Assembly (NCBI RefSeq): GCF_016903815.1
Contig: NZ_CP069973.1
Strand: one strand, 5' to 3'
Source: Escherichia coli
GTDB taxonomy: Bacteria; Pseudomonadota; Gammaproteobacteria; Enterobacterales; Enterobacteriaceae
DNA length: 64,000 nucleotides
Within the stretch, counting starts at the first letter, position 1, and each line of letters starts with the position of its first letter. Positions 5,087-47,846 of the stretch are shown here, in pieces. The notes under the pieces are model-generated. The model saw nothing but the letters and a program-made list of their open reading frames with translations. It was not told the origin of the DNA and did not search any database. The position numbers and the translations under genes are program-made.

Positions 5087-5175
5087 ACTGAAGATTTTCC
5101 TGATATGCAGAGATAAAAAATGGGACAGTGGTGTGGTGAAAACACCAGGCCGGAGCAGAAGGTTATTCTGGTGGT

Positions 5176-5928: not shown

Positions 5929-5992
5929 AGTGGGATACCTCTGAAGACAGAAGATAAAAGTGAAAACAGGTGTGATGTGTGGTTGTGACGGG

Positions 5993-6469: not shown

Positions 6470-6484
6470 TGTTCCTGCCCCCTT

Positions 6485-17831: not shown

Positions 17832-18759
17832 AATAACCATTTCTTCTGAATTACTGCAAATTTCACCGGAAGTACAGGATGCCATTAACAGTAAAAAACC
17901 TGTTGTTGCTCTCGAGTCAACAATTATCTCACATGGTATGCCTTTTCCTCAGAATGCTCAGACGGCTATTGAAGTCGAAGAAACTATACGTAAACACGGA
18001 GCAGTACCAGCCACCATTGCCGTTATTGGCGGTGTAATGAAAGTCGGGTTAAGTAAAGATGAGATTGAATTACTGGGTCGCGAAGGACATAACGTTACCA
18101 AAGTCAGTCGCCGGGATTTACCTTTCGTTATTGCTGAAGGAAAACATGGTGCAACAACGGTAGCTTCAACCATGATTATTGCTGCTCTTGCCGGAATTAA
18201 AGTTTTTGCCACAGGAGGAATTGGCGGCGTTCATCGCGGTGCAGAACACACTTTTGATATTTCAGCCGACCTACAGGAACTGGCACATACTAATGTCACC
18301 GTGGTTTGTGCAGGCGCGAAATCCATTCTCGATTTAGGGTTAACCACGGAATATTTAGAAACATTTGGTGTACCTTTAATTGGCTATCAGACAAGATCAT
18401 TGCCGGCATTTTTTTGCCGCACCAGTCCGTTTGAGGTCAGTATACGTCTGGACAGTGCAAAAGAGATTGCCCGCGCGATGGCAGTGAAATGGCAAACCGG
18501 CCTGAACGGTGGTCTGGTTGTTGCCAATCCGATTCCGGAAGCTTACGCCATGGCGGAAGAGAAAATTAATGCAGCAATTGACCAGGCCGTAAAAGAAGCG
18601 GAAGTGCAGGGCATTACCGGTAAAGAAAGCACACCGTTCCTGCTGGCACGGGTGGCAGAATTAACCGGTGGTGACAGTCTGAAATCAAATATTCAGCTGG
18701 TATTCAACAACGCAGTTCTGGCCTGTGAGATAGCAAAAGAATATCAACAAATTGTCTGA
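17824..18759 (+). CDS. psuG: Pseudouridine-5'-phosphate glycosidase-like (YeiN/PsuG paralog)
   Basis: 311 aa resembling YeiN; overlaps psuK stop by 8 bp. Confidence 0.75.
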   Translation: MSEITISSELLQISPEVQDAINSKKPVVALESTIISHGMPFPQNAQTAIEVEETIRKHGAVPATIAVIGGVMKVGLSKDEIELLGREGHNVTKVSRRDLPFVIAEGKHGATTVASTMIIAALAGIKVFATGGIGGVHRGAEHTFDISADLQELAHTNVTVVCAGAKSILDLGLTTEYLETFGVPLIGYQTRSLPAFFCRTSPFEVSIRLDSAKEIARAMAVKWQTGLNGGLVVANPIPEAYAMAEEKINAAIDQAVKEAEVQGITGKESTPFLLARVAELTGGDSLKSNIQLVFNNAVLACEIAKEYQQIV

Positions 18760-18842
18760 TATAAATGAACGGGCAGTGTGAGGTCGCCCGAAATTACCTG
18801 AACCAGATTCCGTGTCTGGTTCAGGTATAAGGGGAGAGCATT

Positions 18843-20093
18843 ATGGACATCATGAGAAGTATAGTGGGAATGGCAGTATTGCTGATAATTGCATTTCTAC
18901 TATCAGTGAATAAAAAACGTATCAGTTTACGTACCACAGGAGCTGCACTGGTTCTTCAAATCGCGATTGGTGGGATCATGCTCTATTTCCCCCCGGGGAA
19001 ATGGCTGGTTGAACAGGCTGCACTGGGCGTACATAAAATTATGTCTTACAGTGATGCGGGCAGTGCCTTTATTTTTGGCTCTCTGGTAGGGGACAAAATG
19101 GACGTACTGTTCGATGGGGCGGGTTTTATCTTCGCCTTCCGTGTACTTCCTGCCATCATTTTTGTTACAGCGCTTATCAGTCTGCTGTACTACATCAGAG
19201 TGATGGGGGGGCTTATCCGTATTCTGGGGGGGATTTTTCAGAAAGCTCTGAACATAAGTAAAGTTGAGTCATTTGTGGCAGTAACGACAATTTTCCTGGG
19301 GCAAAACGAGATCCCGGCAATTGTAAAACCGTTTATTAATCGTCTGAATCGTAATGAATTATTTACTGTCATCTGCAGTGGGATGGCTTCGATTGCCGGT
19401 TCAATGATGATCGGCTATGCCGGGATGGGGGTTCCGATTGACTATTTGCTGGCGGCGTCGTTGATGGCGATCCCGGGGGGGATCCTTTTTGCCCGTATTC
19501 TGAGTCCGGCCACAGAAGAATCAAAAGTCACTTTTGAAAATCTTTCTTTCACTGATACTCCTCCCAAAAGTGTTATTGAAGCAGTGGCCAGCGGGGCGAT
19601 GACCGGGTTGAAAATCGCTGTCGGAGTTGCAACGGTAGTGATGACCTTTGTTGCTATTATTGCTCTGATTAACGGTATAATCGGTGGTATCGGAGGCTGG
19701 TTTGGTTATGGTAATATTACCCTTGAGGGCATTTTCGGCTGGATTTTGGCTCCCCTTGCGTGGATCATGGGCGTTGACTGGGCGGATGCTTCACTGGCAG
19801 GAAGTCTGATTGGTCAGAAGCTGGCAATTAACGAATTTGTTGCTTATCTCAATCTTTCACCCTATTTACAGCCAGGCAGTACGCTTGATGTGAAAACCAC
19901 CGCAATTATTTCTTTTGCACTGTGTGGTTTTGCCAACTTTGGCTCCATTGGTGTGGTGGTGGGTGCCTTTTCAGCCATATCACCTCAGCGTGCACCTGAA
20001 ATTGCACAACTGGGCATGCGTGCACTGGCGGCGGCCACCCTGTCAAACCTGATGAGTGCGACTATCGCTGGTTTTTTCATTGGGCTGGCATAA
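18843..20093 (+). CDS. psuT: Concentrative nucleoside transporter (NupC family, PsuT-like)
   Basis: 416-aa polytopic membrane protein with NupC-like sequence. Confidence 0.75.
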   Translation: MDIMRSIVGMAVLLIIAFLLSVNKKRISLRTTGAALVLQIAIGGIMLYFPPGKWLVEQAALGVHKIMSYSDAGSAFIFGSLVGDKMDVLFDGAGFIFAFRVLPAIIFVTALISLLYYIRVMGGLIRILGGIFQKALNISKVESFVAVTTIFLGQNEIPAIVKPFINRLNRNELFTVICSGMASIAGSMMIGYAGMGVPIDYLLAASLMAIPGGILFARILSPATEESKVTFENLSFTDTPPKSVIEAVASGAMTGLKIAVGVATVVMTFVAIIALINGIIGGIGGWFGYGNITLEGIFGWILAPLAWIMGVDWADASLAGSLIGQKLAINEFVAYLNLSPYLQPGSTLDVKTTAIISFALCGFANFGSIGVVVGAFSAISPQRAPEIAQLGMRALAAATLSNLMSATIAGFFIGLA

Positions 20094-31965: not shown

Positions 31966-33769
31966 GAGTAGGAGGCGGGATCACTCCCGCCGTCCTCTCA
32001 CACCACCGTACGTGCGGTTCCGCATACGGCGGTTCATGTTAACTCTGGAACTGCCTCTACTGTTCCAGCAGTGATATCAGACCCTGCCTCCTGAACCATG
32101 CATTCTTTATCGCCTGATTCATATGGCTTGACCCTGAGTTCCACCATGGCCCGTGGTTGTTGTACGCAGAGATCATTGCCCTGTCCTTACTCAGTCCTGC
32201 TCTTTGCAGATTCTTTGCCCGGGTTCGCGGTCTCTTCCACTGCCGCTACAACAAGCAACGCAGTTTCCGTTTGATCCAGCCATCCAGCTCCTCCAGCACT
32301 CCTCTGACTTCCGTCAGCCTGAAGTAGCTTATCCATCCACACAGCACTGGTGTCAGAGCATTGATTGTCGCTTTCACTGATTTGCTCCGGTTTCCCGTCG
32401 TCAGACTGTGGACTTTCTCCTTCAGCCTGTTCACGCTCGTCAGGGCTATCTTCAGCTTCGCCTGTTTGTGCCATGTCACACTGTACCCGAGGAACTTCCG
32501 ATCCCACGGGCGCGCCACCGCGCTCTTCTTCTCATTCACCTTCAGTTTGTTCTCCACGAACGCCCTGATGTTCTTCAGCAGATGGTCGCCCGCTTTCCGG
32601 CTGCTTACGTAGATGTTGCAGTCGTCTGCGTAGCGGCAGAAGCTGTGTCCACGACGCTCTAGTTCTTTATCCAGTTCATCCAGCAGGATGTTCGACAGTA
32701 ACGGCGACAGTGGGCCGCCCTGCAGCATGCCCGCCTGCCGTTTCTCCCTTTGCCCGTCTTTAACCATTTCCACTTTCAGGTAGCGGCGTATCAGTCACAG
32801 CACCCGCCTGTCCTTTATCGTTCTGGCCAGACGCGTCATCAGGAGTCTGTGATCCACCCGGTCGAAGAACTTCTCCAGATCCATATCCACCACCCACCGT
32901 TTGCCACCCCGTATGTAACGCTGTGCCTGTTGCACCGCCTGCTGGATAAGCCTGTCCACCACCGTCGGGATGCCTGAGGTTCTCACGCCGCCATCCGGCT
33001 TCGGGATATCCATCCGGCGTATTGCCCGCGGCTGGTAGTTTCCGTCAATCAATGCCTGCCTGACGCTGCGCCAGTTCTTCTTCAGCCACGGTTTCAACTC
33101 CGCCACGCTGAGGTTATCCACCCCCGCCGTGCCTTTGTTTTCCAGCACGCGCTGATAAGCCAGCATCAGGTTTTCTCTCGTTATCACCGCTTCCATCGTC
33201 AGCGGCACTTCCGCTTTCGTTTGCCCACCCGCCGCCGTGCTGATTTCAGCGCCATCATGCAGCCCTGACGGATACTGTCCGTCTCCTCTGCCGCTGGTCG
33301 CAGTTGCCTGCGCTTGTGCTTCATTAATCATCATCGGGTTCGGATGTCCTAATCACAGTTAATCATGTTCGGCCCTTCATGCTGCCGGTTTTGCAGCACT
33401 ACTACGGCGTCGGCTGACTTCTGCCGCCCCATCCCGGCGCCTCACGGCGCCGGTAGCACACTGGCAGGGCGACAGATCTCCCGGGGTAATTCACGTGACT
33501 TTCCTGCTTATGCCTGTCGGCTTTACGTCACAGCGTTCCGTGTGAGTATCGGGCTTTGGTGATTTGTGCCACCTTACCCTGCTGCGCCGCCTTAACCGCT
33601 TCCTGTTCGTCAGGCCAGCATTTTGCATCCAGCTTCCTTCAGATTTCACCTCGCGATGAACACCCTTGCCTTCCGCTAACACTTCCCCTCACCGGGTGTG
33701 TGGAGGACTTTCACCTCTTAGTCGTTCTTCTGCCACCACAGTTGAAGAACAGCGCCAGTCACGGCGCAC
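31966..33769 (-). mobile_element. Degenerate group II intron (class C-like) inserted after a terminator hairpin
   Basis: 5' end GTGCGCC immediately after hairpin 33771..33810; domain V-like CCGTATGCGGAACCGCACGTACGG near 32000; disrupted RT ORF inside. Confidence 0.65.
32246..33334 (-). pseudogene. Group II intron reverse transcriptase, disrupted (in-frame stop, internal deletion, C-terminal truncation)
   Basis: Two abutting ORFs (179 and 175 aa) with RT motifs FCRYADDCNIY and GGPLSPLLSNILLDELD. Confidence 0.8.
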
Positions 33770-33819: not shown

Positions 33820-34725
33820 TTAAAACAGGGGAACCAAGGTAAATAATCCAATGGTCGCCAACAGATTAATCATCGTGGTCATAATGGTGATGACCATCGC
33901 CGGCGGGTCAATATGTGTATCGCCGTGGATCAGGAAGATACGCGACATCAGTTCACCCAATATCGCGCAAATTATGCCAACGATAGCAGCCCAAATCAGG
34001 CTACCTGATGGCACCGCTACCAACGCGGCAGGCAGCGAAATATGATGTGACACCGGTACCTGAGTATTGAAATGCAGGAAAATCAGTGAGAACGCGGAAA
34101 TACCAAACGCCAGCAGCGCGCCGTTGCCGCCAAACTTCAGGCCTAAAAAGCCTGCCATCAAGCCAATACCCAAGCCCAGCACGGAAAGCTGCGGAATGCG
34201 GCTATGGTAAGGTATCCAGCACTTATCCTGCGGCGGATAGCAGTGACGAATTCCCTGCTCCGGTTTTCCAAACAGGCCAGTTTTACCGAAAACCAGACGC
34301 GAGACCACGCCAGAAATCACCACGGTTAGTGCCACGGTATCGGTCCAAGCATTGCCGGACGGGAAGGCCGGAATCTGGTTCAACCCCCAGGCGATGATGT
34401 AACCAACCGCCCCAAAAACCCCGCCTACCAGCAGCACATCGTAAGCCGCCAGACCGCTCAACCCGGCAGTGATATCACGCCCGGAACCCAGCTTGCCTTT
34501 CTTCGCTGCATACGCCGTCGCCGCAACCCCAGCGGCAAAGCCGCCGGTGTGCGGGCCAAACAGTCCAAACGGAAAAGTAATAAAGTCCGATGATGCTCCG
34601 GTAATAATTTGCACTACCGTCATGGCGATAACCAGAAGCCCAACGAATTCAAACGCCGCCAGCGCGCCAACAGCCGCACCAAATATGCCGCCGCCGAAGG
34701 CAACTACAATATCTAAGCTATTCAT
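33820..34725 (-). CDS. Integral membrane protein (putative substrate transporter of the locus)
   Basis: 301-aa highly hydrophobic, Gly/Ala-rich ORF. Confidence 0.6.
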   Translation of the reverse strand: MNSLDIVVAFGGGIFGAAVGALAAFEFVGLLVIAMTVVQIITGASSDFITFPFGLFGPHTGGFAAGVAATAYAAKKGKLGSGRDITAGLSGLAAYDVLLVGGVFGAVGYIIAWGLNQIPAFPSGNAWTDTVALTVVISGVVSRLVFGKTGLFGKPEQGIRHCYPPQDKCWIPYHSRIPQLSVLGLGIGLMAGFLGLKFGGNGALLAFGISAFSLIFLHFNTQVPVSHHISLPAALVAVPSGSLIWAAIVGIICAILGELMSRIFLIHGDTHIDPPAMVITIMTTMINLLATIGLFTLVPLF

Positions 34726-34861
34726 CTAGCTTACCTCTGTAATTAAATCAAATGACAATATAAGTAATGCAGATTGCTCTATATTTTTAAAATTGAAATA
34801 GTATTCATGCGTAACAAATAAACAAGTGCAGCATTTTTTCGCACTCTTATTACATCTTTTA

Positions 34862-35779
34862 TTAACCGCCGATATGGCAGTTAAAACCTAAGGATTCAAC
34901 CATTGCTTTTAACTCTGCCATTTGGGCTTCTTCGATACTTTTTGTATCGCCCATCGGATACTGGCGACCAAGCAGATTATATTTATTTTCACCGAAGCTG
35001 TGATAAGGCAATAAGTGAATGGTATCGACGTTCTGCATCAGGCGGGCGAACTCCGCAATATTATGGATTTCCTGCGAATTGTCATTCACTCCTGGGATCA
35101 CAGGAATACGCACAACCACTTTGGTTAAAAAGGAGATGCGCAGCAGATTCTCCAGAATCACTCTGTTATTCACGCCGGTGTTGCGCTCATGGATTTCCGG
35201 ATCGATGGCTTTAATATCGGTCAGAGCAAGATCGACATAGGGAAATACCTCATCAATCACCGCTTTGGTGGTGAAGCCGCTTGTTTCAATAGCGGTGTGC
35301 CAGCCTTTGGCTTTACAGGCTTTAAGCAACTCGCGGGCAAATTCCGGCTGCGCCAGCGGTTCACCACCGGACAGGGTAATCCCGCCGCCTGAACGCCGGT
35401 ATAAATTCTCTTCTTTTTCCAGTTCGCGCATCACTGCCGTTACCGACATACGCTTGCCCTTCATTTCCAGCGCACGGGTAGGGCAAATCTCAGTACATTT
35501 CCCACACTGAATACAGCGGTCGCGATTGATAAACCAGGCATTAGTAATGGAAAGAGCCTGTTGTGGGCAAGCATCAATACATTTTCCACAGCGGATGCAA
35601 TCATTCTTTTTAAATAATAACTCTGGGCTGTGACGTTGTGATTCAGGATTACTACACCATTTGCAGGACAGCGGGCAGCCTTTAAAAAAAGGAATGGTTC
35701 GAATGCCTGGACCATCATGCAAAGAATAGCGTTGAATATTAAATATGACGCCTTCGGTTTCGTATTCAACTTTATTCAT
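34862..35779 (-). CDS. Glycyl-radical enzyme activating enzyme (radical SAM, with ferredoxin-like insert)
   Basis: CPLSCKWCSNPE radical-SAM motif plus CIRCGKCIDACP and CIQCGKCTEICP clusters. Confidence 0.9.
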   Translation of the reverse strand: MNKVEYETEGVIFNIQRYSLHDGPGIRTIPFFKGCPLSCKWCSNPESQRHSPELLFKKNDCIRCGKCIDACPQQALSITNAWFINRDRCIQCGKCTEICPTRALEMKGKRMSVTAVMRELEKEENLYRRSGGGITLSGGEPLAQPEFARELLKACKAKGWHTAIETSGFTTKAVIDEVFPYVDLALTDIKAIDPEIHERNTGVNNRVILENLLRISFLTKVVVRIPVIPGVNDNSQEIHNIAEFARLMQNVDTIHLLPYHSFGENKYNLLGRQYPMGDTKSIEEAQMAELKAMVESLGFNCHIGG

Positions 35780-35887
35780 AACATCACTCTATATTTACCA
35801 GATGAATTACCTTTTCAGATAAAAGTAACAACCAGAAGTCGTGGAGAAAGTAACGGGCTATATATTGATACATAGCCCGTCTGGTAT

Positions 35888-38440
35888 TTACGACAGTTGT
35901 TGCTCAGTACGGCTGATTATGTCGTCCTGAACTTCTTTCGCTAAAACTACCCACTGGGCGCTATAGCCCGCAACGCGTACCACCAGATCCTGATGTTGCT
36001 CAGGATTTTTCTGGGCTTCGATCAAAGTGTTGCGGTCGATAACGTTAAATTGAACGTGCATCCCTTTCTTATCGAAGTAGTGACGTATCAGGCCGCTGAA
36101 GTTGCGCAGACCGTTCTCGCCAGCCAAAGAAGACGGCAGGAATTTCTGATTATAGAGCGTACCGTTGGAGGCGATAAAGTGATCCAGTTTGGCAACTGAG
36201 TTGGCTGCGGCGGTTGGGCCAAGGGTGTCTTTACCCTGACGTGGAGATACGCCATCCGCCAACGGCTCTTTCGCCAGACGGCCATCCGGCAGTGCGGCAA
36301 CGTCTTTACCAAACAGCACGTTCGCAGACACCGGATAGATACCAGCCTGGAACTGGCCACCGCGCGGGTTGGTATATTTCTCAACTTCCTGGCAGTAGAT
36401 CAGCGCACATTTACGCGCTACTAAATCCACGTCATCGATGTCGTTACCGAAGCACGGTGTGTTTTCCAGAATACGACGGATCTCCTCGTGACGGGACATA
36501 GTGCCGGATTGCACCGGTGCTGCACTGCCGGAAGTCAGCTGGCGATAAACTTCGTTTTTAATCGCTGCCGGATCCAGAGCGCCATGCTGTTCAATGATGC
36601 GTTTCACCACATCGTAGATATCCTGCTCGTTGAGCGAGGATTTCGCCGCTGGAGTGTGCGGGTTCGCACCCACCGGATAACCGAAGTTGGCGTCCAGTGC
36701 GCTTTTCAGTTCGCTCAAAGACAGTTTACGATCTTCGAATACCTGTTTCTGGATGGCATAGACGGAGTCGCCGGTATCGGCTACGCCGAATGCTTGCGGC
36801 CCAGTAAAGTTGTAAATCGCCCCGCCTTCCTGGAGAGATTTACCACGGCCGATACAGTCGTCGACCAGTGCTGATAGGAACGGCAGCGGGCAGCGTTCGC
36901 CGTGGGCAATATCCACGCTGTTACAGGCTTCAACCAGTTGATGAACGAAGTGCGCCATCTGTTTCTGGAACGCGGTGTAGAAGTCCTCCATGCTGGTGAA
37001 CTGAGTCAGTTCGCCAGTCACTGGGCCTAGCTGTTTATTGCCAACGCGACCGTTGTTCAGGGTGATTTCCAGCACTTTTGCAACGTTAAAGAACGCGGCG
37101 TCATGCCAGCCCTCGGTGCGATGCGGTGCCTGCGGCTCTACGCAGCCGATGATACAGTAATCACGCGCATCACGCAGCGAAATGCCACGGTTCTGCAGCG
37201 CCGGGATGATTACTTCATCGTTGTACATTGCCGGAACGCCCAGGCCCATACGCACCAGCTCGCAAGCGCGATACAGAAACTCATCCGGAGTACCCTGCCA
37301 TACGCGGATTGAGAAGGATGGCTGCGGCAGACGCACATGGGCAGTCGCTTCCATACACATGTAGCTCAGATCGTTAGTTGCGTCGCGACCGTCTTCTGTC
37401 TGGCCGCCACAGCACAGGTTCTGGAACACTGCGTAACCGGCAAACGCCTGGGCAGAGACTTCGTCACGCGTTTTGTTAATGTCGTTAAGCTTGATCCAGC
37501 AGCAATCCACCAGTTCCTGCGCGAATTCACGCGAGATAGATTTGTCCGACTCCAGATACGGGTACATATACTGGTCGAAACGCCCCGGGGAGATAGAATG
37601 ACCGCTGGATTCAATCTGTAACATGCTCTGAATAAACCAGAATGTCTGGCATGCTTCCCAGAATGTGGTAGCACCGTATTCCGGCACGCGAGTACAGTTT
37701 TGAGCAATCTGCTCCAGTTCGCGTTTACGGGTCGGATTGCTCTCCTGCTGCGCCAGACGGGATGCTTCTTCAGCGTAACGATGGGCGAAACGGATCGCTG
37801 CGTTATAACTGATCAGCACCGCATTATAGAACTGTTCTTTCTTTATATATCCTGGTTCAGTGCGATCTAATGATTCCAAGGCACGGCTAACTTCATTAAT
37901 GATACCACGGAAACCAATTTTCAGCACTTTACCGTAGTCAACACTGACATGACCGACGCCCCCGAAGAAGTAGTTACCAACAGTGAATACACCGCTCGCC
38001 ATACTCTCTTTAGTGCCTTCTGACATGTAAGATGCCGCCAGAGCACTGGTAGTTTTACCCGGCCAGTATTTAAATGCTTCATGAAGCTCCTGAGCAGTCT
38101 TTTTCGGGATAACAAACGGGTCGGCAATACGGTGTTCCATAGTCTCAAACTCTTTTTCCACCCAGTCGTAGGAGAACTCAGGGCAGATTTCAGTTGAGCG
38201 AGGATTAATAGTTACCGCTCCAACGATTAATTCGTCTGGGCGAATTGTTACCGGTAATTGGTTAAAGATTTTTTCCACCACTTTAGCACGACGCATAATC
38301 GCGGGCAGTTGTTCTGTTTCTTTATATGCTTCGGTTGCTAACACCGCGCGTTCTGATTCCACATACGGCTTCGCCGTCAGGATCATATTTCTCAGTCTTA
38401 CAACACGGTCTGTCGGATTAGAAAAGCCTTTCTCTAACAT
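35888..38440 (-). CDS. Glycyl radical enzyme (PFL-like), 850 aa, probable 1,2-propanediol dehydratase-type
   Basis: C-terminal glycine-radical motif RVAGYSAQWV and catalytic loop GCVEP; substrate is inferred from locus type. Confidence 0.85.
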   Translation of the reverse strand: MLEKGFSNPTDRVVRLRNMILTAKPYVESERAVLATEAYKETEQLPAIMRRAKVVEKIFNQLPVTIRPDELIVGAVTINPRSTEICPEFSYDWVEKEFETMEHRIADPFVIPKKTAQELHEAFKYWPGKTTSALAASYMSEGTKESMASGVFTVGNYFFGGVGHVSVDYGKVLKIGFRGIINEVSRALESLDRTEPGYIKKEQFYNAVLISYNAAIRFAHRYAEEASRLAQQESNPTRKRELEQIAQNCTRVPEYGATTFWEACQTFWFIQSMLQIESSGHSISPGRFDQYMYPYLESDKSISREFAQELVDCCWIKLNDINKTRDEVSAQAFAGYAVFQNLCCGGQTEDGRDATNDLSYMCMEATAHVRLPQPSFSIRVWQGTPDEFLYRACELVRMGLGVPAMYNDEVIIPALQNRGISLRDARDYCIIGCVEPQAPHRTEGWHDAAFFNVAKVLEITLNNGRVGNKQLGPVTGELTQFTSMEDFYTAFQKQMAHFVHQLVEACNSVDIAHGERCPLPFLSALVDDCIGRGKSLQEGGAIYNFTGPQAFGVADTGDSVYAIQKQVFEDRKLSLSELKSALDANFGYPVGANPHTPAAKSSLNEQDIYDVVKRIIEQHGALDPAAIKNEVYRQLTSGSAAPVQSGTMSRHEEIRRILENTPCFGNDIDDVDLVARKCALIYCQEVEKYTNPRGGQFQAGIYPVSANVLFGKDVAALPDGRLAKEPLADGVSPRQGKDTLGPTAAANSVAKLDHFIASNGTLYNQKFLPSSLAGENGLRNFSGLIRHYFDKKGMHVQFNVIDRNTLIEAQKNPEQHQDLVVRVAGYSAQWVVLAKEVQDDIISRTEQQLS

Positions 38441-38488
38441 ATAAAACTCCCGAATATATTTTGTTAACCTTGCGGAGATGCCAGGGTA

Positions 38489-39064
38489 TTAATGAATAAT
38501 GCTAGTGCCCATTTGAGTAATAAAGTGACGTAATATTGCTGGATGCCCCATCCAGGTAGTCGCGGTTATTAAATTACCATCCACAATGGCTTCATCATCT
38601 GCGGCAGTGACCCACTGGCCACCCGCCATTTCCACTTCCGGTTTTACCGTAAAATATCCCGTCAGTTTCCGGCCTTTTAATACCCCAGCAGCGGCCAGAA
38701 TTTGTGGGCCATGACAAATTGCAGCAACAGGTAATGTTAAATTCATCGCGTAATGCACGATATCCAATACTGACTTATTTAATCGCAAGTATTCCGATGA
38801 ACGCCCACCAGAAATATAAACACCACTATATTCCTGTAACCTTATGTCATCAAATGATGCAGTTAATCTAAAAAGATGTCCGGGTTTTTCGGTGTAGGTC
38901 TGATCACCTTCAAAATCATGAATCGCGGTTTTAATAAACTCGCCGGTACGTTTTCCCGGACACACTACATCCACTCTGAAACCTAACATGTTTAATGCCT
39001 GCCATGGCACCATGACTTCATAGTCTTCAGAGAAATCGCCTGTGATAAGTAATATCTTCTTCAT
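38489..39064 (-). CDS. DJ-1/PfpI-family protein
   Basis: Nucleophile-elbow motif AICHGPQIL; start at internal Met MKKILLITGD. Confidence 0.7.
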   Translation of the reverse strand: MKKILLITGDFSEDYEVMVPWQALNMLGFRVDVVCPGKRTGEFIKTAIHDFEGDQTYTEKPGHLFRLTASFDDIRLQEYSGVYISGGRSSEYLRLNKSVLDIVHYAMNLTLPVAAICHGPQILAAAGVLKGRKLTGYFTVKPEVEMAGGQWVTAADDEAIVDGNLITATTWMGHPAILRHFITQMGTSIIH

Positions 39065-39074
39065 AAGCGGACTC

Positions 39075-39374
39075 TCAAAACTGGTTATCGTCTTCCTCAA
39101 TGATTCGCATGGCTTCATGCACCGCCGCGACTTCGCCAAAAATGGCCAATGTGGTGATATGCTGAGGGCAACTGCCAAAGATTTCTGATACCACCACATT
39201 GGCGCTTTTACTGGCTACGTCGGCATAAAAATAGAGATCCGGAACCGGCAGTATTAACAAACCAATGGCGTCGATGCGAATCAAATCCAAACGCGAACGA
39301 AACTCCCCGGGCATACGCCGTTTCAACATAGCCAAAATATCCGGGGTCGGTGCGTTTATGATTCGTTTTTTCAT
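39075..39374 (-). CDS. EutS/PduU-type permuted BMC shell protein, GrpU-like, with GSCPQ motif
   Basis: Permuted BMC pattern similar to EutS; GxCPQ motif associated with Fe-S binding in GrpU. Confidence 0.7.
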   Translation of the reverse strand: MKKRIINAPTPDILAMLKRRMPGEFRSRLDLIRIDAIGLLILPVPDLYFYADVASKSANVVVSEIFGSCPQHITTLAIFGEVAAVHEAMRIIEEDDNQF

Positions 39375-39397
39375 CTTTAAGTCACCCTTCGCGATAG

Positions 39398-40915
39398 TTA
39401 GCGAATATTCAGCGCTTCAACCATTACACAGCGACGACGGCGTGCAAACGAACGCGCTGACGTAAGTCCCTCGCCGGTCGGTCCGGCAATCGTAAAGGTG
39501 GCATGCCCTTCACCGCCCACCCCCAGCCCTGCATAAGAGGGACCATTTTTAACAAAGATGGTGGTCTGGATCAGGCGCGCCATTTTGGTCAGCTTTTCGA
39601 CGTTGGTGGAGTGCATAACCGCGGTATGACGATTGCCGTGCTCCACTTTCACCGCCAGCTCAATGGCTTCATCAACATTGTCTACGCGCACCACCGGCAG
39701 GACCGGCATCATCAGCTCATGCACCACAAACGGATGTGTTTTCTCAGCCTCAATTAAGATGACTTTGATATCGTCGCCAACCTGGATTCCCAGTTGTTGC
39801 AGGATATAGCGCGCATCTTTGCCGACAAAGGCGGTATTCGGCCCAGTGCCTTTTTCATTAAGCACCAACGATTGCAGTTGTTGACTTAACTTCTTATCGC
39901 ACAACAGATAGGCACCGCTTTTCTTCATGCAGTGAATCAGATAGTCCGCTACCTGGTTCACAACAATCACCTCTTTTTCCGCCACGCACGGCAGGTTGTT
40001 GTCGAAGCTACAGCCCTTAATGATGTCGCGGGCTGCTTTTTCGATATCCGCCGTTTCATCTACCACAGCTGGCGGGTTACCTGCGCCTGCACCAATCGCT
40101 TTTTTACCTGATGACATCACGGTTTTCACGATGGCTGGACCGCCAGTCGCTACCAGCATGTTGATACGTGGGTCGTTGATCAGGACGTTGGTATTGTCGA
40201 TGGACGGTTTGGTCACCGTTACCACCATGTTAGCCGGTGCGCCCAACTGGGCAAGCTTGTTGTTGATCAGCTCAACCGCGTACAGCGACACTTTGCGCGA
40301 GCGCGGATGTGGACTGAACACCACAGTGTTGCCTGCCGCCAGCATGCCTATGCTGTTGTTGATAATGGTTTCGGTCGGGTTAGTCGTTGGTGTAATCGAA
40401 CCAATCACTCCGAACGCAGAGTATTCGATCAACGTTAAACCCCCGTCTCCGGAAACCGCGCTGGTGGTCAGATCTTCGATACCTGGCGTTTTCAGCGCTG
40501 CGACGCGGTTTTTGATCAGTTTGTCCTCGTAATTCCCCATGCCGGTCTCTTCCACCGCCATACGGGAAAGGGCACACAGCACATCTTCCTGCAGGAAGAC
40601 ATCGCGAATGCCATTGATAAACGAGGCGCGGTCTTGCATAGAACAGTGGCGATACTGCACTTGTGCCAAGACGGCGGCGGAAATCGCCTCATCCATGGTA
40701 TCGAATGCTCCAGTGCTAGCATTCGCTACCTTCGCTACCTGAGAGATCGCACTGGCGTCGCGCACGGAAGAGTGCTGCGCCAACGCCTTAGCGACAATTT
40801 CATCCAACCCGTCGACCCGCGCTGCTTCTGACGTGGCGGGAGCTTCATCCGGTGTTGCTTTGGTGAATTTGCTCAGAATGGTCGAGACAGCCTGAGCGAT
40901 TTCAATATCATTCAT
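39398..40915 (-). CDS. CoA-acylating aldehyde dehydrogenase (PduP/EutE family)
   Basis: 505-aa aldehyde dehydrogenase-like sequence with N-terminal extension typical of encapsulation peptides. Confidence 0.85.
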   Translation of the reverse strand: MNDIEIAQAVSTILSKFTKATPDEAPATSEAARVDGLDEIVAKALAQHSSVRDASAISQVAKVANASTGAFDTMDEAISAAVLAQVQYRHCSMQDRASFINGIRDVFLQEDVLCALSRMAVEETGMGNYEDKLIKNRVAALKTPGIEDLTTSAVSGDGGLTLIEYSAFGVIGSITPTTNPTETIINNSIGMLAAGNTVVFSPHPRSRKVSLYAVELINNKLAQLGAPANMVVTVTKPSIDNTNVLINDPRINMLVATGGPAIVKTVMSSGKKAIGAGAGNPPAVVDETADIEKAARDIIKGCSFDNNLPCVAEKEVIVVNQVADYLIHCMKKSGAYLLCDKKLSQQLQSLVLNEKGTGPNTAFVGKDARYILQQLGIQVGDDIKVILIEAEKTHPFVVHELMMPVLPVVRVDNVDEAIELAVKVEHGNRHTAVMHSTNVEKLTKMARLIQTTIFVKNGPSYAGLGVGGEGHATFTIAGPTGEGLTSARSFARRRRCVMVEALNIR

Positions 40916-40975
40916 CTTTAAATTCCTTACTACTCTTCATCTGCCGACCGCGCCGCGTGCATCGTCATCAGATGC

Positions 40976-41761
40976 TTAGATATATGGCGTCGTGGTGGAT
41001 TTAATTTCCACCGGATCTAACGTGGAGAGCAGTTGTAGACCGACTTCACGCGCGGCAATCACCGCCTGACGTACTGCACCGGAATCACCGGAGAAGGTGA
41101 AGATCACTTCGTTACTAAAGCTGGTGCCTTGCGACGGGCTGGCATAACCCACCGGGTCAATCACGGCGGATTTCGCCGCAGCGTCGGCAATCACCAGGCC
41201 AATCGCCGCAGGCGAGGCACAGGTCATCCCGAAGGATTTACCAATCGGCGCACCCAGCGCTTTATTCAGCGCGTAGCTGGCACGAGCGGTGTACTGGAAT
41301 TCAAGATGTCCGGCTGACGAGCCATAAACGTCACCCATGGTGCGTTCAATTTCAGACAGCGCCACTTCAACCGCACGCCTGACGTCGGAAACATCAGACG
41401 CACCGAAAATAATTAAGCAACCGTGTCCGCCACCTCCTTCGGTATCGCGGGCCAGCTCAATAGAAATAATTTCGCTGTTGGTTGCTTTAATCGCTTCGTC
41501 AGCCGCAAAAATTTGCGGGCCTGCGCCAGTACGTGCGCCAAGAATACCGATAGAGCGATATTTCTTGTCGATATTCATGACTTCATGCAATTGATTATCA
41601 ACATTGGCAATCACTAGGCCGATAGTGTGGCCCAACGCAGTGCCGACAAATTCCGTAATACCGCAACCAGCGAAATTCGCTGCTGTTTTAGCTTCCGGTG
41701 AGATATCGGTTTGTTTATTCATTACGTCAGATATAATCTGCTCAACAAGATTATCTCTCAT
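40976..41761 (-). CDS. Tandem-BMC-domain shell protein (BMC-T, PduB-like)
   Basis: 261-aa protein with PduB-like N-terminus MRDNLVEQIISDV. Confidence 0.75.
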   Translation of the reverse strand: MRDNLVEQIISDVMNKQTDISPEAKTAANFAGCGITEFVGTALGHTIGLVIANVDNQLHEVMNIDKKYRSIGILGARTGAGPQIFAADEAIKATNSEIISIELARDTEGGGGHGCLIIFGASDVSDVRRAVEVALSEIERTMGDVYGSSAGHLEFQYTARASYALNKALGAPIGKSFGMTCASPAAIGLVIADAAAKSAVIDPVGYASPSQGTSFSNEVIFTFSGDSGAVRQAVIAAREVGLQLLSTLDPVEIKSTTTPYI

Positions 41762-41782
41762 GATCAGTATCCTTTATTGTTA

Positions 41783-42064
41783 TTAACCGATAGCCTTCGG
41801 TAGAATTTTTTCCACCTCAATGTGTGGGCGTGGAATAACATGTACGGAGACCAGTTCTCCCACTTTACTCGCAGCAGCGGAGCCCGCATCTGTCGCGGCT
41901 TTCACTGCGCCAACGTCGCCGCGAACCATCACAGTCACCAAGCCGGAGCCGATTTTTTCATAACCCACTAGGGTCACGTTGGCAGATTTCACCATGGTAT
42001 CTGCAGCTTCAATTGCAGAAACCAGACCTTTCGTTTCAACCATTCCTAATGCTTCTTGTTGCAT
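41783..42064 (-). CDS. BMC-H shell protein (PduA/PduJ-like)
   Basis: [45 protein letters not shown] canonical BMC domain; start at internal Met. Confidence 0.9.
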
Positions 42065-42348
42065 AACGACCTCAATATTTCCGATAGAAAGAAAACGTGC
42101 ACAGAGGAATAGCAATCTACGGATTCACCCATGTGCATTAATTATTTAATTATCATAATGCTAAGGTTATTCAGACAAAATGTTTTGCGCGTCAGTGGGA
42201 CTATCTTGCTTTTGCATTCCCGCAATTGACAATAAAATCCACCCGAGGTTTGTAATAAAAGATCTGCGTTTAAACTTCCTTGCAAAATAGCCCCGCTCTG
42301 AATAGCGATCATAATTACTGTTAAAACTGTCGTATTTTTGCCAATTAG

Positions 42349-43545
42349 TTATGCCGTGCGGGCAATCTCCGCTGCATCTATAGCAATCATTTTTTCTTCA
42401 TTGGTTGGGATGACCGCAATCTTCGTGGTGTCGGTTTTAGAAATCAGTCCGCTACGTCCGCCGAACAGCTGCTGGTTACGTTCTTTATCCAGTTCCAATC
42501 CCAGCGCCTGAAGGCGTTGCACGGTAAGTTCTCGAATTAACGCCGAGTTTTCGCCAATTCCACCGGTGAAAATCAGCGCATCGAAGCGTTTAAGCGAGGT
42601 CACGTGGCCGCCGATATGTCGTGCGAGACGATGTACTAACACGTCGATGGCTAACGCTGCCCGTTCGTGGCCCTCATCACGCGCCTGCTGAAGGGTGCGG
42701 CAATCGCTGGATAAGCCGGAAATCCCCATTAGGCCGGACTGGTTATTGAGCATTTTGTACAGCGTGTCGAATGTTTGACCTGTGCGTTTCGCCAGATATG
42801 CGACGACACCAAAATCAAGATCCCCGCAGCGCGTGCCCATTACCAGCCCTTCCAGCGGGGTCATACCCATTGAGGTGTCAATGCTCGTGCCGTTTTGCAC
42901 CGCACATAGCGATGAACCGTTGCCCAAGTGGGCAATCACGATGCCATGATCCGCCGGGTCGAGATCTAGTGATGCAAGCGCTTCTGCGGCAATATAGCGG
43001 TGAGATGTTCCGTGAAAGCCGTAACGTCGCACCATATAATCTTGCTGGAACTCCAGCGGGATCGCATAGGTGTAAGCAGCCGGAGACAAGGTCTGGTGGA
43101 ACGCAGTATCGAACACCGCAATATGCGGCAACGCGGGCAACAGAGCCCGAGCCGCTTCAATACCAATCAGGTTGGCAGGGTTATGCAAAGGGGCCAGCAC
43201 CGACAGCGCGCGGACTTTTTCGATCACATCATCGGTAACCAGTACTGATCTTTTGAAGTCGCTGCCGCCATGAGCCACGCGGTGCCCAACGGCGTTGATG
43301 GCTTCCAACAGTTGCTGTTCGTCGAGCTTCGCGAAGAGCACTTTGAGCGCATGCTGATGGCTGGCGTCATCCAGCGCGACAGTGGATTTATGGCCGTCTC
43401 GGTCTTTAAACGTTATGACAGCATGATCAATACCCAGTCGTTCCGCTAGGCCCGACAGCAACGGCTGATCTGCATCCTGAGGAATGACGGAGAATTTCAT
43501 TGATGAGGAACCACAATTAATCACTAATACACAAGCTAAAGACAT
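42349..43545 (-). CDS. Acetate/propionate kinase (AckA/PduW family)
   Basis: VLVINCGSSSMKFSV N-terminal motif; start codon at 43543..43545. Confidence 0.85.
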   Translation of the reverse strand: MSLACVLVINCGSSSMKFSVIPQDADQPLLSGLAERLGIDHAVITFKDRDGHKSTVALDDASHQHALKVLFAKLDEQQLLEAINAVGHRVAHGGSDFKRSVLVTDDVIEKVRALSVLAPLHNPANLIGIEAARALLPALPHIAVFDTAFHQTLSPAAYTYAIPLEFQQDYMVRRYGFHGTSHRYIAAEALASLDLDPADHGIVIAHLGNGSSLCAVQNGTSIDTSMGMTPLEGLVMGTRCGDLDFGVVAYLAKRTGQTFDTLYKMLNNQSGLMGISGLSSDCRTLQQARDEGHERAALAIDVLVHRLARHIGGHVTSLKRFDALIFTGGIGENSALIRELTVQRLQALGLELDKERNQQLFGGRSGLISKTDTTKIAVIPTNEEKMIAIDAAEIARTA

Positions 43546-43573
43546 GATGCCCCCTGAAATGGACTGCAAAAAA

Positions 43574-44071
43574 TTAACGGGTTGTTGTGAGGGGATAACG
43601 CAGAACGCTAAACTGCGCCATCGCCTGGCGGGCGATGAGCATATCTTCCTCAACACTGCCGCCGCTGATGCCGATGCCGCCTAGTAAGCGCCTGCCCGAC
43701 CAGCAGGGAAAACCACCGCCGAAGCAGCAGATATCTTTTTCTTTCTCAAGGCCGTACAAATCACCACCCGGCTGTACCAGCGTTGCCAGTTCGTGAGTTG
43801 GCATTTTGAGAGCTACCGCGGTCCAGGCCTTTTGTGGTGCCAAGGTATGGCTGACCAGCAGGGCGTTATCCATGCTGAAGAAAAAACGCTGCTGACCGCA
43901 GGCATCCACTAGGCTAAAAACGATCGATACATTGCTGGACTGTGCCATTTCCCGGGCCAACTTTGCCAGCAGTTCACTGTCCTCCAGGCTCAGCGACATC
44001 CGGAGTTCCGGTAACTGCGTGGCAATAGCCTCATTAATCCAGTTGTCGAGTGAAGCCTCATTCGCAGACAT
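43574..44071 (-). CDS. GlcG/HbpS-like (DUF336, PduO C-terminal domain-like) protein
   Basis: 165-aa ORF with GGIGISGG motif. Confidence 0.6.
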   Translation of the reverse strand: MSANEASLDNWINEAIATQLPELRMSLSLEDSELLAKLAREMAQSSNVSIVFSLVDACGQQRFFFSMDNALLVSHTLAPQKAWTAVALKMPTHELATLVQPGGDLYGLEKEKDICCFGGGFPCWSGRRLLGGIGISGGSVEEDMLIARQAMAQFSVLRYPLTTTR

Positions 44072-44098
44072 AAGTATTCCTCAGCGTACGCGCCGCTA

Positions 44099-44368
44099 TT
44101 AACCGTTAAGTTCGAGCGTGTCGACGATACCCACCACGGCAGCGTCAATCACCGAGTGATCTTTGTTGTTGCTCATACGCGCCGAACTGCCGGTGGTGAT
44201 GATCACAATCTCTCCATTGCCCGCGCCGACAGTATCAACTGCCACCTGGGCATGGACAGTCGGCTGATAGTTTTCATCGAGCCGCGCCACTATCAGCAGT
44301 TTTGAGCCATTCAGCGAGGCGTGTTTGGTGGTGGAAACCAATGCGCCAGTAACTTTAGCGAGGTACAT
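44099..44368 (-). CDS. BMC vertex protein (BMC-P, EutN/PduN/CcmL family)
   Basis: MYLAKVTGALVSTTKHASLNGSKLLIV... matches the EutN/PduN pattern. Confidence 0.85.
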   Translation of the reverse strand: MYLAKVTGALVSTTKHASLNGSKLLIVARLDENYQPTVHAQVAVDTVGAGNGEIVIITTGSSARMSNNKDHSVIDAAVVGIVDTLELNG

Positions 44369-44379
44369 ATTTCCTCCGG

Positions 44380-45105
44380 TTAACCATGGATAACAGTGAG
44401 ATTACGCCGCTGGATTTCATCTCTGGCAGCAGGGGTAATCAGCGTGTCGCTCTCAATGCGCAGCACTGTGCCAATGGTCAGTAGGCGGATATCGCTCTGG
44501 GTGATTAAACGTTTTTTACCGGCTACTGTCAGGGTGGATTGGCTTCCTTGCACCGACTTGACATGGGCTGCACGTTTACCGAAAAGCGTAATGCCATAGC
44601 TCTCTAGGACCTGAGCGTAACCTTCCAGACAAGACAGCAGTGGCATCGGTAATTCGCTATCGACGCATTGTTGATGCAGCGTGGCGATAATCTGTTTACG
44701 GTGCTGTAACGCCTGAAATACAGTTTCACAGGCCAGATTATCGCGAATGCCCAGCGCAATTTTGCTCATGCTGTTGACAGAGAGCGCAGGCAGATAGAGC
44801 ACCTCATAGTGAGGCGGCGATCTGTCAAATCCAGCACGAGAACCACGCTGAATTAGCGCATCCATGCAGACAGATTTCAGCGCCGACTGGCTGGCGCTGT
44901 GAGAAAAATTTACCCACAACTGATAGCCCGCCAGCTCAAGCGCCTCAAGGCAGTTCAGCGTTTCCGGCAGCGAGGAGATATCCTCACCAGTCACCACTAC
45001 GCAGACATTTTTCTGCGCGACGGATTGTGCCAACACTTCAGCGATGACCCGGTCCAGCAGTTGCGATAAGGTTTGATTGTCCATTGATTTACCCCTGGTC
45101 CGCAT
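44380..45105 (-). CDS. Microcompartment-locus protein of unrecognised family (241 aa); alternative start at 45084
   Basis: ORF inside the operon between the eutJ-like and vertex genes; no motif recognised. Confidence 0.55.
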   Translation of the reverse strand: MRTRGKSMDNQTLSQLLDRVIAEVLAQSVAQKNVCVVVTGEDISSLPETLNCLEALELAGYQLWVNFSHSASQSALKSVCMDALIQRGSRAGFDRSPPHYEVLYLPALSVNSMSKIALGIRDNLACETVFQALQHRKQIIATLHQQCVDSELPMPLLSCLEGYAQVLESYGITLFGKRAAHVKSVQGSQSTLTVAGKKRLITQSDIRLLTIGTVLRIESDTLITPAARDEIQRRNLTVIHG

Positions 45106-45909
45106 TCATGGCGATGCCTAATGGTGTGACCAATAGTGGCTCTGCCGAAGGAATCACATTTTTACCGGTTTGTTTACTGAACACGTTGGCAAACTGGCTG
45201 AAGCTGCTCGCGCCACCTACCAAATAAATATTTTTTACCTGCTGGGTAGCGAACCATCCCGACACCAAGCTGGCCATTTTCTGGGCCACCGGTAGCACCA
45301 GGGTAAAGACCTGCGCTTCCTGCCCGTTTTTTTTCATTTCTTCCGCCTCGGCATAAGGCAAGCCCAGCGCGCCAGCGATCACCAACTTCATATGGCTTCC
45401 ACCGGTGGGCTCATCGGCACTGAACGTCACTTTACCGCTTTTCAAAATGCTCATGCCGGTGGTGCCTCCTCCGACATCCACCACCGCCCCGTTTTTAATA
45501 TTCAGCGCGCTGGCAGCGGCTACCGGTTCATCTAGTACTTGGGTCACGATAAAACCCGCCAACTCCACTACGTTGACGATCACTTTTGTGTTGCCTTCAG
45601 AGATCCCCGGTGGGACTGCGATCGCCGCGCGCTCCAGCGTGCAGCCCTGTTTCTGTTCAAGAATTTGTTTGAGACGTGCTACTACCCGGCTGGCGGTCAG
45701 GTAATCCACCACCACGCCGTCTTTCACCACATTGGAGGGATACATTACCCCTGCCACCGGCTGGTTATCTTCATCCAGCACCACGATTGCGATATTGGCG
45801 GTACCGAGATCCCCCCCACCTTCAACGCGCCGGAGTAGGGCCGACATTCGCCGCTGTCAATCAGCGCGGCCAATTCGTGAAATCGGCAGTTTTCGGGGCT
45901 GTTAGCCAT
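45089..45909 (-). CDS. EutJ-like actin-fold (Hsp70-type) protein with an apparent frameshift at a 7-nt C run (45811..45817)
   Basis: ORF from 45847 starts at the DLGT phosphate-binding motif; an ATG at 45909 in another frame encodes ...ALKVGG, which would precede DLGT after a 1-nt shift. Confidence 0.6.
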
Positions 45910-46588
45910 GGCGCGCAGCCTGTTTTATGCCGCGAACGGTATCGCCATTACGCAGACCGACGCCGTTAGCTTCTTCCATATCAATATGCAGTTCCAGCAC
46001 TGCATCCGCCGTGACGCGTACCACTACATGGCTGAGCACACCACCGCGCGGACCGTTTGTTTGCACATCGATTTCCATTCCGTCATGCAGGCCGTGCAAT
46101 TCGGCTTCTTCGGGCGAGATATGGATATGGCGCCAGGCGACAATCATGCCGTTGTGTTTCACCACCCGCCCTTTCGGACCGATGATTTCAATGCCCGGCG
46201 AATCCAGCAGATCCCCCGACATGCGCACCGGAGCTTTAGTGCCCAGCGCAAAGCCGTCGGCCACAGAGATTTCCACCTGCGTGGCATTACGCAGTGGCCC
46301 TAACACGCGCACTTTGTTGAGCTCGCCTTTTGGCCCGCGCAGCGTCACCATCTCTTCGGCGGCATACTGACCGGGCTGTTTCAACGCTTTAGAACGGGTT
46401 AGCGTAGAGCCGTAGCCAAACAGAATGTCCATATCTTCACGGCACAGATGAACATGGCGGTTGGACACGCCCACCGGAATATTCAGCGCGACGGGCGCGG
46501 CAGCAGGCGCTGCCGTTTTTTTACTGGTGGCAAGTTCCTGCAAAATTTGTTGGGTAATCCACTCGGCTTGTTGTTCGGTGTAATTCAT
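45902..46588 (-). CDS. Phosphotransacylase, PduL type
   Basis: GVSNRHVHL ... ALKQPGQYAAEE ... AWRHIHISPEEA motifs. Confidence 0.85.
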   Translation of the reverse strand: MNYTEQQAEWITQQILQELATSKKTAAPAAAPVALNIPVGVSNRHVHLCREDMDILFGYGSTLTRSKALKQPGQYAAEEMVTLRGPKGELNKVRVLGPLRNATQVEISVADGFALGTKAPVRMSGDLLDSPGIEIIGPKGRVVKHNGMIVAWRHIHISPEEAELHGLHDGMEIDVQTNGPRGGVLSHVVVRVTADAVLELHIDMEEANGVGLRNGDTVRGIKQAARHG

Positions 46589-46727
46589 AATGGGTACGAC
46601 CTGATTATTGGGTTATCTTATGGGTAATGGGCGTCTAACGATCAGGATAGGGAGTAACGACGCCCGGTTTTTGTTTATCAGCAGGACTTTTTTGACTGCT
46701 TCACGGAGGCTGAACAAAGTTATCCAG

Positions 46728-47846
46728 CTAGCCGGTAATCAGGTCGATCAACCCTTCGACATCATGCGTCGTCACCTGCCGCGGGTTCGACGCGGTACAA
46801 CCGTCGGCCAGCGTCGAATTCACCAGTGCGCTGCGCAACTCGATGATTTTTGCACGGTCGATACCCAGTTCGCTGAGAGTGACGGGGATGCAGAAATGGC
46901 GATTGATCTGGCGGATCTCCTGAGTCATCAGCGCGATGGCCTGCTCCGGTACCGCATGGTCAATGCCTATGATTTGCGCGCAACGGTGATAGCGATCGCG
47001 GGTTTCAGTGCTGGCCCGTTTGCTGTTGAAGTCGATGACAATCGGCAGCAGCATGGCGTTAATTTTGCCATGAGGAATATGCAGCATCCCGCCGATGGCG
47101 TGTGCCATGCCGTGTACCAACCCCAGCCCGGCGGAGTTAAATGCCATGCCTGCCATACAGGAGGCATTGTGCATGTGGGTGCGCGCCGCAATGTCTTTTT
47201 CGTCGTTAAACACCTGCGGCAGATAGCGCCAGGTCAACGCGATGGCTTTTTCCGCCAGCGCATCGCTAAAGTCATTTGAGCCAGTAGAGACAAAGGCTTC
47301 AATGGCATGGGTCAGCACGTCCATGCCGGTATCTACCGCGACATGACGCGGCGCGGTTAACACTAGGTTAGGATCGAGAATGGCGATTTCCGGCACCAGT
47401 TGCCCGGAGATCAACGGATATTTGCGGCCATTTTGCGGATCAGAGATGATCGCGTAGGACGTCACTTCAGAGCCGGATCCGCTGGTTGTGGGAATAGCAA
47501 TGAGATCGATTTGATGATCTCCAAAATACTCTTCCAATGTGACTTTAATTCCTTTCGCAGCGTCCAGCGACGAGCCGCCGCCGAGGGCGATAATAACGTC
47601 GGGCTTAAAGGCTTTAAAACGCGCCGCGCCGGAAGTCAGAATATCAATATCTGGATCCGGAGTAACCTCGCCGAAAATGCATACCGATGCCTCAGGCATA
47701 TGGCTTATTAAATAACGAGTTTTACCTGATGACATCATAAAATCATCGGTGACAATACCGACTCGTTTATTATTAAATTGGCATAGAGAGGTTATTGCCT
47801 CTTCACCAAAATAAATTTTGGGGCACGAAAAATAATAGCGGGCCAT
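46728..47846 (-). CDS. Iron-containing alcohol dehydrogenase (PduQ/EutG-like), first gene of the operon
   Basis: GGGSSLDAAK and His-rich metal site (HGMAHAIGGMLHIPHG). Confidence 0.85.
   Translation of the reverse strand: MARYYFSCPKIYFGEEAITSLCQFNNKRVGIVTDDFMMSSGKTRYLISHMPEASVCIFGEVTPDPDIDILTSGAARFKAFKPDVIIALGGGSSLDAAKGIKVTLEEYFGDHQIDLIAIPTTSGSGSEVTSYAIISDPQNGRKYPLISGQLVPEIAILDPNLVLTAPRHVAVDTGMDVLTHAIEAFVSTGSNDFSDALAEKAIALTWRYLPQVFNDEKDIAARTHMHNASCMAGMAFNSAGLGLVHGMAHAIGGMLHIPHGKINAMLLPIVIDFNSKRASTETRDRYHRCAQIIGIDHAVPEQAIALMTQEIRQINRHFCIPVTLSELGIDRAKIIELRSALVNSTLADGCTASNPRQVTTHDVEGLIDLITG

Follow-up and report, generated by a model that had tools for sequence, protein, structure and literature searches.

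The function of the EutJ family is undefined in the literature (PMC4207490), and deletion of eutJ in Salmonella left both the assembly of the Eut microcompartment and growth unaffected (PMC12487888). A gene of this family, grpC, is also part of the grp operon (grpA-grpS in RefSeq), which corresponds to a glycyl-radical 1,2-propanediol microcompartment of the GRM3 type. According to the passages of two later papers that cite Lundin et al. 2020, CFT073 is the strain in which grp-dependent anaerobic use of 1,2-propanediol has been characterized (PMC11724981, PMC13210347). Two precedents bear on genes that are interrupted by a frameshift at a run of G: low-level frameshifting at a G7 run rescues the HSV thymidine kinase (PMC5009743), and a 2024 PNAS study found that E. 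coli suppresses a construct with a single-base deletion through non-programmed -1 shifts at a bulk efficiency of ~4% (PMC10861913). Here we describe grpC of E. coli, which, compared with its intact orthologues, is disrupted by a single-nucleotide deletion that has become fixed in the lineage.

The window analysed, a 64,000-nt stretch of E. coli DNA, carries the grpA-grpO part of the operon, and the frameshifted gene is grpC (Table 1). The neighbours of grpC encode PduL, an EutN-type vertex protein, BMC shell proteins and a glycyl radical enzyme with its activase, which places the gene within a microcompartment operon. Leaving grpC aside, the genes of the window that were compared with their RefSeq-annotated counterparts in strain 7/2 were grpA, grpB and grpE to grpO, all of which match exactly, and grpD, which differs. 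When 1.7 kb around the frameshift site was compared with 5,426 complete E. coli genomes, matches were found in 538 of them, and 537 of the 539 matching records were at least 99% identical. Several features of the surrounding island were also recorded. Relative to strain 7/2 (NZ_CP023820.1), the window shows a 36-nt coordinate offset in its first ~22 kb and is collinear from ~22.5 kb, and the grp regions of the two are 100% identical over the segment tested. In both, the grp island lies beside cadC/cadB, on the pheU side, whereas in CFT073 it lies near 4.31 Mb; the cadC/pheU island of CFT073 shares the PerC / IbrB-like / PAPS-reductase module, with pap, ireA and pgt genes occupying the place of grp. 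Between grpO and grpP, the window (32246-33334, minus strand) and CFT073 both hold ORFs that have a reverse-transcriptase domain or are maturase-like, and these look like the remnant of a group II intron interrupting the grp cluster. The same island further includes a cluster for a pseudouridine kinase, a pseudouridine-5'-phosphate glycosidase and a nucleoside transporter, and a CbtA/YeeU type IV toxin-antitoxin system with DUF987, JAB, antirestriction and DUF932 genes (window 16869-20093 and 4290-5652).

Table 1. Features of the grpC region, in coordinates of the window.
Feature	Position	Strand	Basis or remark
grpA-grpO part of the grp operon	33820..47846	-	RefSeq annotation and gene comparison with strain 7/2
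grpB, PduL-type phosphotransacylase, upstream of grpC	45902..46588	-	stop overlaps the native grpC start
54-codon 5' remnant ORF	45745..45909	-	codons 1-32 (45814-45909) are the native GrpC/EutJ N-terminus; the remaining codons are out of frame
G7 tract (C7 on the plus strand), frameshift site	45811..45817	-	sequence; probable ancestral GGGGG-T-GG (GTG GGG GTG GAT) without the T
252-codon 3' ORF, RefSeq grpC, WP_001332070.1	45089..45847	-	first 12 residues wrong-frame; ancestral EutJ-family body from DLGT
TAATG, candidate termination-reinitiation site	45743..45747	-	stop codon of the 5' remnant shares bases with an in-frame ATG, codon Met35 of the 252-aa ORF
grpD, flavoprotein, downstream of grpC	44380..45105	-	17-nt overlap of its start with the 3' end of the grpC ORF

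The earlier note on this DNA had described an apparent frameshift at a run of seven C near the 5' end of a eutJ-like gene, and the run CCCCCCC is present on the plus strand at the tabulated site. The product of the 54-codon ORF reads MANSPENCRFHELAALIDSGECRPYSGALKVGG and then, out of frame, ISVPP..., and its start codon at 45909 overlaps the grpB stop codon (ATGGCTAA), a coupling arrangement that intact orthologues share; in the intact E. coli minor-allele locus, grpB (5322-6008) and grpC (6001-6825) overlap by 8 nt. The 252-codon ORF had been thought to begin at the DLGT motif itself. In fact 12 foreign residues derived from the wrong frame (MSALLRRVEGGG) precede DLGTANIAIVV, and these residues replace the native ...ALKVGV; the ORF thus lacks the preceding strand, as had been claimed. 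When the tract was edited in silico, eight G (8G) gave a single ORF of 273 aa and five G (5G) a single ORF of 272 aa, both leading into DLGTANIAIVV, whereas six G (6G) gave no single ORF. The suggestion that a change in tract length would rejoin the two frames is therefore borne out for the addition of one G or the removal of two, and not for the removal of one. The 273-aa trans-frame product of the 8G type has the junction peptide ...ALKVGGDLGTANIAIVVLDEDNQPVAGVMYPSNVVK. At the end of the 54-codon ORF, AGGGG precedes the TAATG on the minus strand; judged from this arrangement, reinitiation there is possible and would yield a 218-aa product that lacks the DLGT loop.

Relatives were sought with the repaired protein in 5.8 billion proteins. 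All close relatives outside the main E. coli allele are encoded by single ORFs of 272-274 aa with ~96-100% query coverage; they comprise a rare E. coli allele (P0001, 93% identity), two proteins of Atlantibacter hermannii (P0008 and P0009, 84-85%) and further sequences from Acerihabitans, Vibrio, Budvicia and others. All intact orthologues read ...ALKVGVDLGT..., and the close ones, far from starting at the equivalent of 45847, carry the upstream N-terminus. We aligned the DNA of six intact loci, all with the gene order grpA-grpB-grpC-grpD..., to the window. The nearest intact allele has AAG GTG GGG GTG GAT CTC where the window has AAG GTG GGG G-G GAT CTC; compared with this E. coli minor allele, exactly one base is absent from the window, the T of the Val33 codon (aligned strings: GGTGGGGGTGGATC in the intact allele and GGTGGGGG-GGATC in the window). 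At the tract, the orthologues have GGGGGTGG, GGGAGTGG or GGGTGTGG, that is, an interrupted tract with neither a run of seven G nor a frameshift, and the gene stays in a single frame. As loss of the T from GGGGGTGG joins GGGGG to GG, the G7 run is probably a product of the deletion, and creation of the homopolymer by the deletion is the simplest account of the lesion. Judged by the aligned DNA of the orthologues, a length change in a pre-existing homopolymer is less economical, and a two-step origin, in which the T first became G and one G was then lost, needs an extra event.

Both forms of the protein are recognized by the EutJ family models. TIGR02529 (EutJ; cut-off 152.1) gave 383-384 bits for the 252-aa ORF and the repaired protein, with the former scoring 383.8 bits over residues 11-248, and NF011660 (EutJ equivalog, NCBIfam; cut-off 182) gave 348 bits for the 252-aa ORF and 359 bits for the repaired protein. 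The NF011660 alignment spans residues 9-272 of the repaired protein; together with the N-terminus shared by the orthologues, this shows that the frame opened by the ATG at 45909 encodes the true EutJ N-terminus, as the earlier note had proposed, and is not a chance ORF. The alignment with 3H1Q, the solved EutJ structure (E = 2.4e-60), starts at residue 23 and continues through KVGVDLGT; it thus covers the displaced N-terminal segment, which therefore belongs to the folded domain. In all 106 full-length homologues (106/106), the N-terminal helix and the strand before DLGT are encoded in one ORF, with V or I before DLGT, and the residue at Val33 is V in 97% of them; in the window the two elements are split.

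The length of the tract was determined in E. coli with an 80-nt probe centred on the run, which matched 536 complete genomes. Seven G (7G; exact probe match) were present in 518 of these, six (out of frame) in 14, five (in frame) in one and eight (in frame) in none, and the remaining three differed otherwise. Carriers of 7G include the Sanger-era S88, the type strain ATCC 11775 and CFT073, which also has WP_001332070.1. In a large assembly index, the exact 252-aa product of the 7G form was found in 32,018 blocks, the exact 273-aa product of the 8G form in 28 contigs (49 blocks; nine loci were confirmed as 8G in the DNA) and the 272-aa product of the 5G form in 12-15 contigs. The 218-aa product, which is called when the 252-aa ORF is broken, occurred in 100 contigs, an upper bound for such alleles. 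The out-of-frame 6G form is at least as common as 8G or 5G; as some 6G calls cluster by study, part of this variation may be long-read error. When twelve 7G, 6G and 5G loci were compared, three SNP haplotypes were distinguished over 5.5 kb, all of which carry 7G, and 7G was found at both chromosomal sites of the island, beside cadC in the window and at 4.31 Mb in CFT073. The presence of the deletion in all three haplotypes and at both island sites indicates that it is older than the diversification of the grp island within E. coli and now effectively fixed. The earlier note had offered three causes, a sequencing or assembly error, a recent inactivating mutation and slippage-based phase variation; of these only the inactivating mutation survives, and with 518 of 536 genomes, three haplotypes and CFT073 affected it can no longer be called recent.

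Alleles with 8G and 5G, each well under 1% and mostly from short-read assemblies, occur on all three haplotype backgrounds, so that repeated and independent slippage of the tract is evident. The 8G carriers are neither one clone nor an ancestral relic, as 8G lies on all three haplotypes and 7G is dominant in each. The sole complete genome with 5G, MLI104K2 (NZ_CP116925.1), bears a second, 2-nt deletion in grpC (named 'eutJ' by PGAP) and has other frameshifted genes nearby; its grp operon ends prematurely behind grpG, where IS1 and a class 1 integron (intI1, dfrA1, aadA1, qacEdelta1, sul1) truncate it. With these further indels and this truncation, MLI104K2 was discounted as a credible variant with restored GrpC.

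The explanation that we favour, and regard as probable, is that grpC, an EutJ-family gene for an ATPase of the actin/Hsp70 fold, carries a lineage-fixed single-nucleotide deletion which amounts to a tolerated loss of function or a strong hypomorph, with rare slippage revertants. A unitary frameshift pseudogene is marked by a reading frame that is broken relative to intact orthologues and fixed as such in the lineage, and grpC shows this trait. In the sequence ...AAG GTG GGG GTG GAT CTC..., which encodes K V G V D L, the Val33 codon would have lost its T in a single event that preceded the divergence of the present-day E. coli grp haplotypes and merged G5 and G2 into G7. An ancestral grpC of 274 codons would thereby have been split into the 54-codon ORF, still coupled to grpB, and the overlapping 252-codon ORF, deprived of the native N-terminal helix and of the strand that precedes the DLGT phosphate-binding loop. 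Full-length GrpC would be made only through rare slippage, either in DNA revertants or by low-level, non-programmed -1 slips on G_GGG_GGG, and the G7 tract would act as an ordinary mutational hotspot that yields occasional 6G, 8G and 5G forms, with no regulated switch. The operon appears not to need GrpC, as fermentation of 1,2-propanediol is reported for CFT073, a carrier of the 7G allele; the Salmonella eutJ deletion points the same way. Of the 19 grp genes, the Lundin study reportedly found only 8 to be required. Weighing against loss of function are the intactness of the 252-codon ORF, the invariance of its product, its undiminished HMM scores and the fact that RefSeq treats the ORF as a gene.

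The same observations speak for the best-surviving alternative, which we nevertheless consider unlikely: that the 252-aa ORF is a functional GrpC with a remodelled N-terminus, started independently at the ATG at 45847. The ORF is open, its product shows no amino-acid polymorphism in any sampled 7G locus across the three haplotypes, the exact product recurs in the 32,018 blocks, and its HMM scores are not reduced in comparison with those of intact orthologues. In addition, there is no haplotype-distinguishing SNP in the 1,174 nt centred on grpC (about 44900-46100 of the window; alignment columns 1833-3007), whereas ~22 such SNPs lie in the flanking 5.5 kb (P ~0.04 for the grpC interval). However, the low diversity of the whole locus can account for both the invariance and the SNP-free stretch without selection, and an ORF that stays open over ~23 substitutions is not unexpected by chance. 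The conserved N-terminal helix is absent from the 252-aa ORF, and LKVGV, the central strand of subdomain IA, has become RRVEGGG, with the loss of 97%-conserved hydrophobic residues. The ATG at 45847 has no recognizable Shine-Dalgarno sequence and sits inside the upstream ORF that is coupled to grpB. Moreover, 6G variants, which destroy the ORF, are at least as common as the in-frame variants.

Measures of constraint on the remnant are in keeping with this assessment in direction. The branch dN/dS of grpC, 0.42, is still below 1, as a functional remodelled protein would have it, but compares with ~0.22 pooled over nine neighbouring genes (Fisher p = 0.18). Of the 13 amino-acid changes along the branch of the window allele, 6 (L10F, L88Q, T97I, S117L, T175K and L220F) led to residues found in 0-1% of the 106 homologues at conserved positions, and the E. 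coli 7G branch also carries a one-codon deletion in grpC. The intact sister allele, by comparison, has five changes, mostly at variable positions and none (0/5) to a rare residue (p = 0.11 against 6/13). None of the relaxed-constraint contrasts in branch dN/dS and in the conservation of the substituted sites was significant (p = 0.18, 0.19 and 0.11), with trends in the expected direction.

Less likely again, and in our view rather improbable, is that the gene is a pseudo-pseudogene, in which a -1 slip of the ribosome or the addition of a G by RNA polymerase yields a small but sufficient amount of full-length GrpC (VGGDLGT), so that the deletion would be an attenuator of expression. The tract is well placed for such an event. 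GUG GGG GGG AUC contains G_GGG_GGG, a perfect X_XXY_YYZ heptamer in the zero frame, and a -1 shift on it gives ...VGGDLGT, exactly the 8G product; the native start is still coupled to grpB, and both the ~4% suppression in E. coli and the rescue of the HSV enzyme provide precedents. Elements that stimulate frameshifting would be expected as a downstream structure 5-9 nt away or as an SD-like sequence 10-14 nt upstream. Downstream of the run no convincing stimulatory RNA structure was found: the sole hairpin follows the run without a gap and is unexceptional (z = -1.46; 19 of 200 shuffles fold as well). An SD-like sequence was likewise absent from the interval 10-14 nt upstream, as AAGGTG directly abuts the run. 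The two-frame arrangement, furthermore, is absent from all homologues outside the 7G allele, the rescued product would still carry V33G at a position that is 97% conserved, and a requirement for GrpC is without support.

A comparably small chance is given to the broader proposal that the deletion allele has been kept as useful, either for a trickle of full-length GrpC, tuned by -1 slippage during grpB-coupled translation or by transcriptional slippage, or through an adaptive loss of GrpC, with recombination carrying the allele across the haplotypes in a sweep. A hint of such a sweep is the 1.2 kb about grpC without a haplotype-distinguishing SNP; this stretch could be due to chance, to local recombination or to a sweep of the deletion allele.

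A slipped-strand phase-variation switch, in which OFF (7G) and ON (8G or 5G) forms would vary the GrpC content within populations, is very improbable. It would fit the position of the tract in the 5' coding region, where tract length sets the reading frame, and the independent occurrence of 8G and 5G on all three haplotypes, albeit mostly in short-read assemblies. Yet the ON forms are very rare (8G in 49 blocks and 5G in 15 contigs read, against 7G in 32,018 blocks), and only 1 of the 536 complete genomes is ON, in an assembly with further indels in the locus. No ON allele is commoner than the 6G form, which does not restore GrpC (6G in 14 of 536 complete genomes and in at most 100 contigs), and the tract is interrupted in the orthologues. 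Seven G is also short for a switch in mismatch-repair-proficient E. coli. Finally, homopolymers are error-prone on some platforms, and a part of the 6G calls is clustered by study. That the 7G of the window is itself an error of sequencing or assembly is nevertheless scarcely conceivable, as the same 7G stands in 518 complete genomes from many technologies and laboratories, including Sanger-era S88 and CFT073, and its product in 32,018 blocks of the collection.

The main value of these results lies in annotation and in the interpretation of grpC genetics in CFT073. RefSeq annotates the 7G form as a 252-aa 'propanediol utilization system chaperone GrpC' without a pseudogene or frameshift flag, the 6G form as 'GrpC, frameshifted', a pseudogene, and the frame-restored 5G form as 'EutJ'; as the names differ by tract length, the truncated form apparently served as the naming reference. 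Because CFT073, the reference strain for the genetics of the Grp microcompartment, has the broken allele, the absence of a grpC phenotype in this strain would be uninformative on the role of an intact EutJ-family protein in glycyl-radical microcompartments. Natural intact alleles for probing EutJ-family function are available in the E. coli minor allele, in Atlantibacter and in the rare 8G revertants. The locus also shows clearly how a point deletion can, of itself, make a slippage-prone homopolymer, which can then be mistaken for a sign of phase variation. A separate annotation of interest in CFT073 concerns the shell hexamer gene grpH, flagged as 'frameshifted' by RefSeq (NC_004431.1, 4311811-4312094). 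Compared with its counterpart in the window (41783-42064), it has two single-base insertions outside homopolymers (GAC-GTT to GACTGTT and CCAC-GC to CCACAGC); the window and the other genomes examined have an intact grpH, and the insertions in CFT073 may be errors of its 2002 assembly.

Compared with described systems, GrpC is homologous in sequence to EutJ, shares with it the actin/Hsp70-type fold motifs DLGT and DVGGGTTG, and is likewise encoded next to a PduL-type phosphotransacylase gene in a microcompartment operon. Unlike eutJ, the gene of the window is split over two frames, and the 32 N-terminal residues, among them the strand before DLGT, are missing from its largest ORF; its locus is of the glycyl-radical propanediol type (GRM3/grp) and not a eut locus. 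With the intact grpC alleles of E. coli, Atlantibacter hermannii and others, it shares 93-85% amino-acid identity, the order grpA-grpB-grpC-grpD and the 8-nt overlap of grpB and grpC; those alleles, in contrast, are single ORFs of 274 codons with GTG GGG GTG GAT (or GGA/GGT GTG) and no run of seven G. The closest parallel in the form of the lesion is the 'savior indel' of the HSV thymidine kinase (Atkins et al. 2016, PMC5009743), where a one-base indel also lies at seven G and slippage could in principle restore the product. The HSV run, however, was pre-existing and its residual activity has been demonstrated and selected, whereas the grpC run was probably made by the deletion and would restore GrpC only in principle. 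Like the poly-G/C contingency loci of Neisseria, Campylobacter and Haemophilus, grpC has a poly-G tract in its 5' coding region whose length variants switch the frame; in contrast to those loci, its ON variants stay far under 1%, the short tract is not kept in relatives, and the host is proficient in mismatch repair. The spectrum of grpC variants, with 6G at least as common as 8G, followed by 5G, looks like ordinary mutation at a G7 hotspot and not like a contingency locus, and the grpC deletion is a new example of a familiar type of event.
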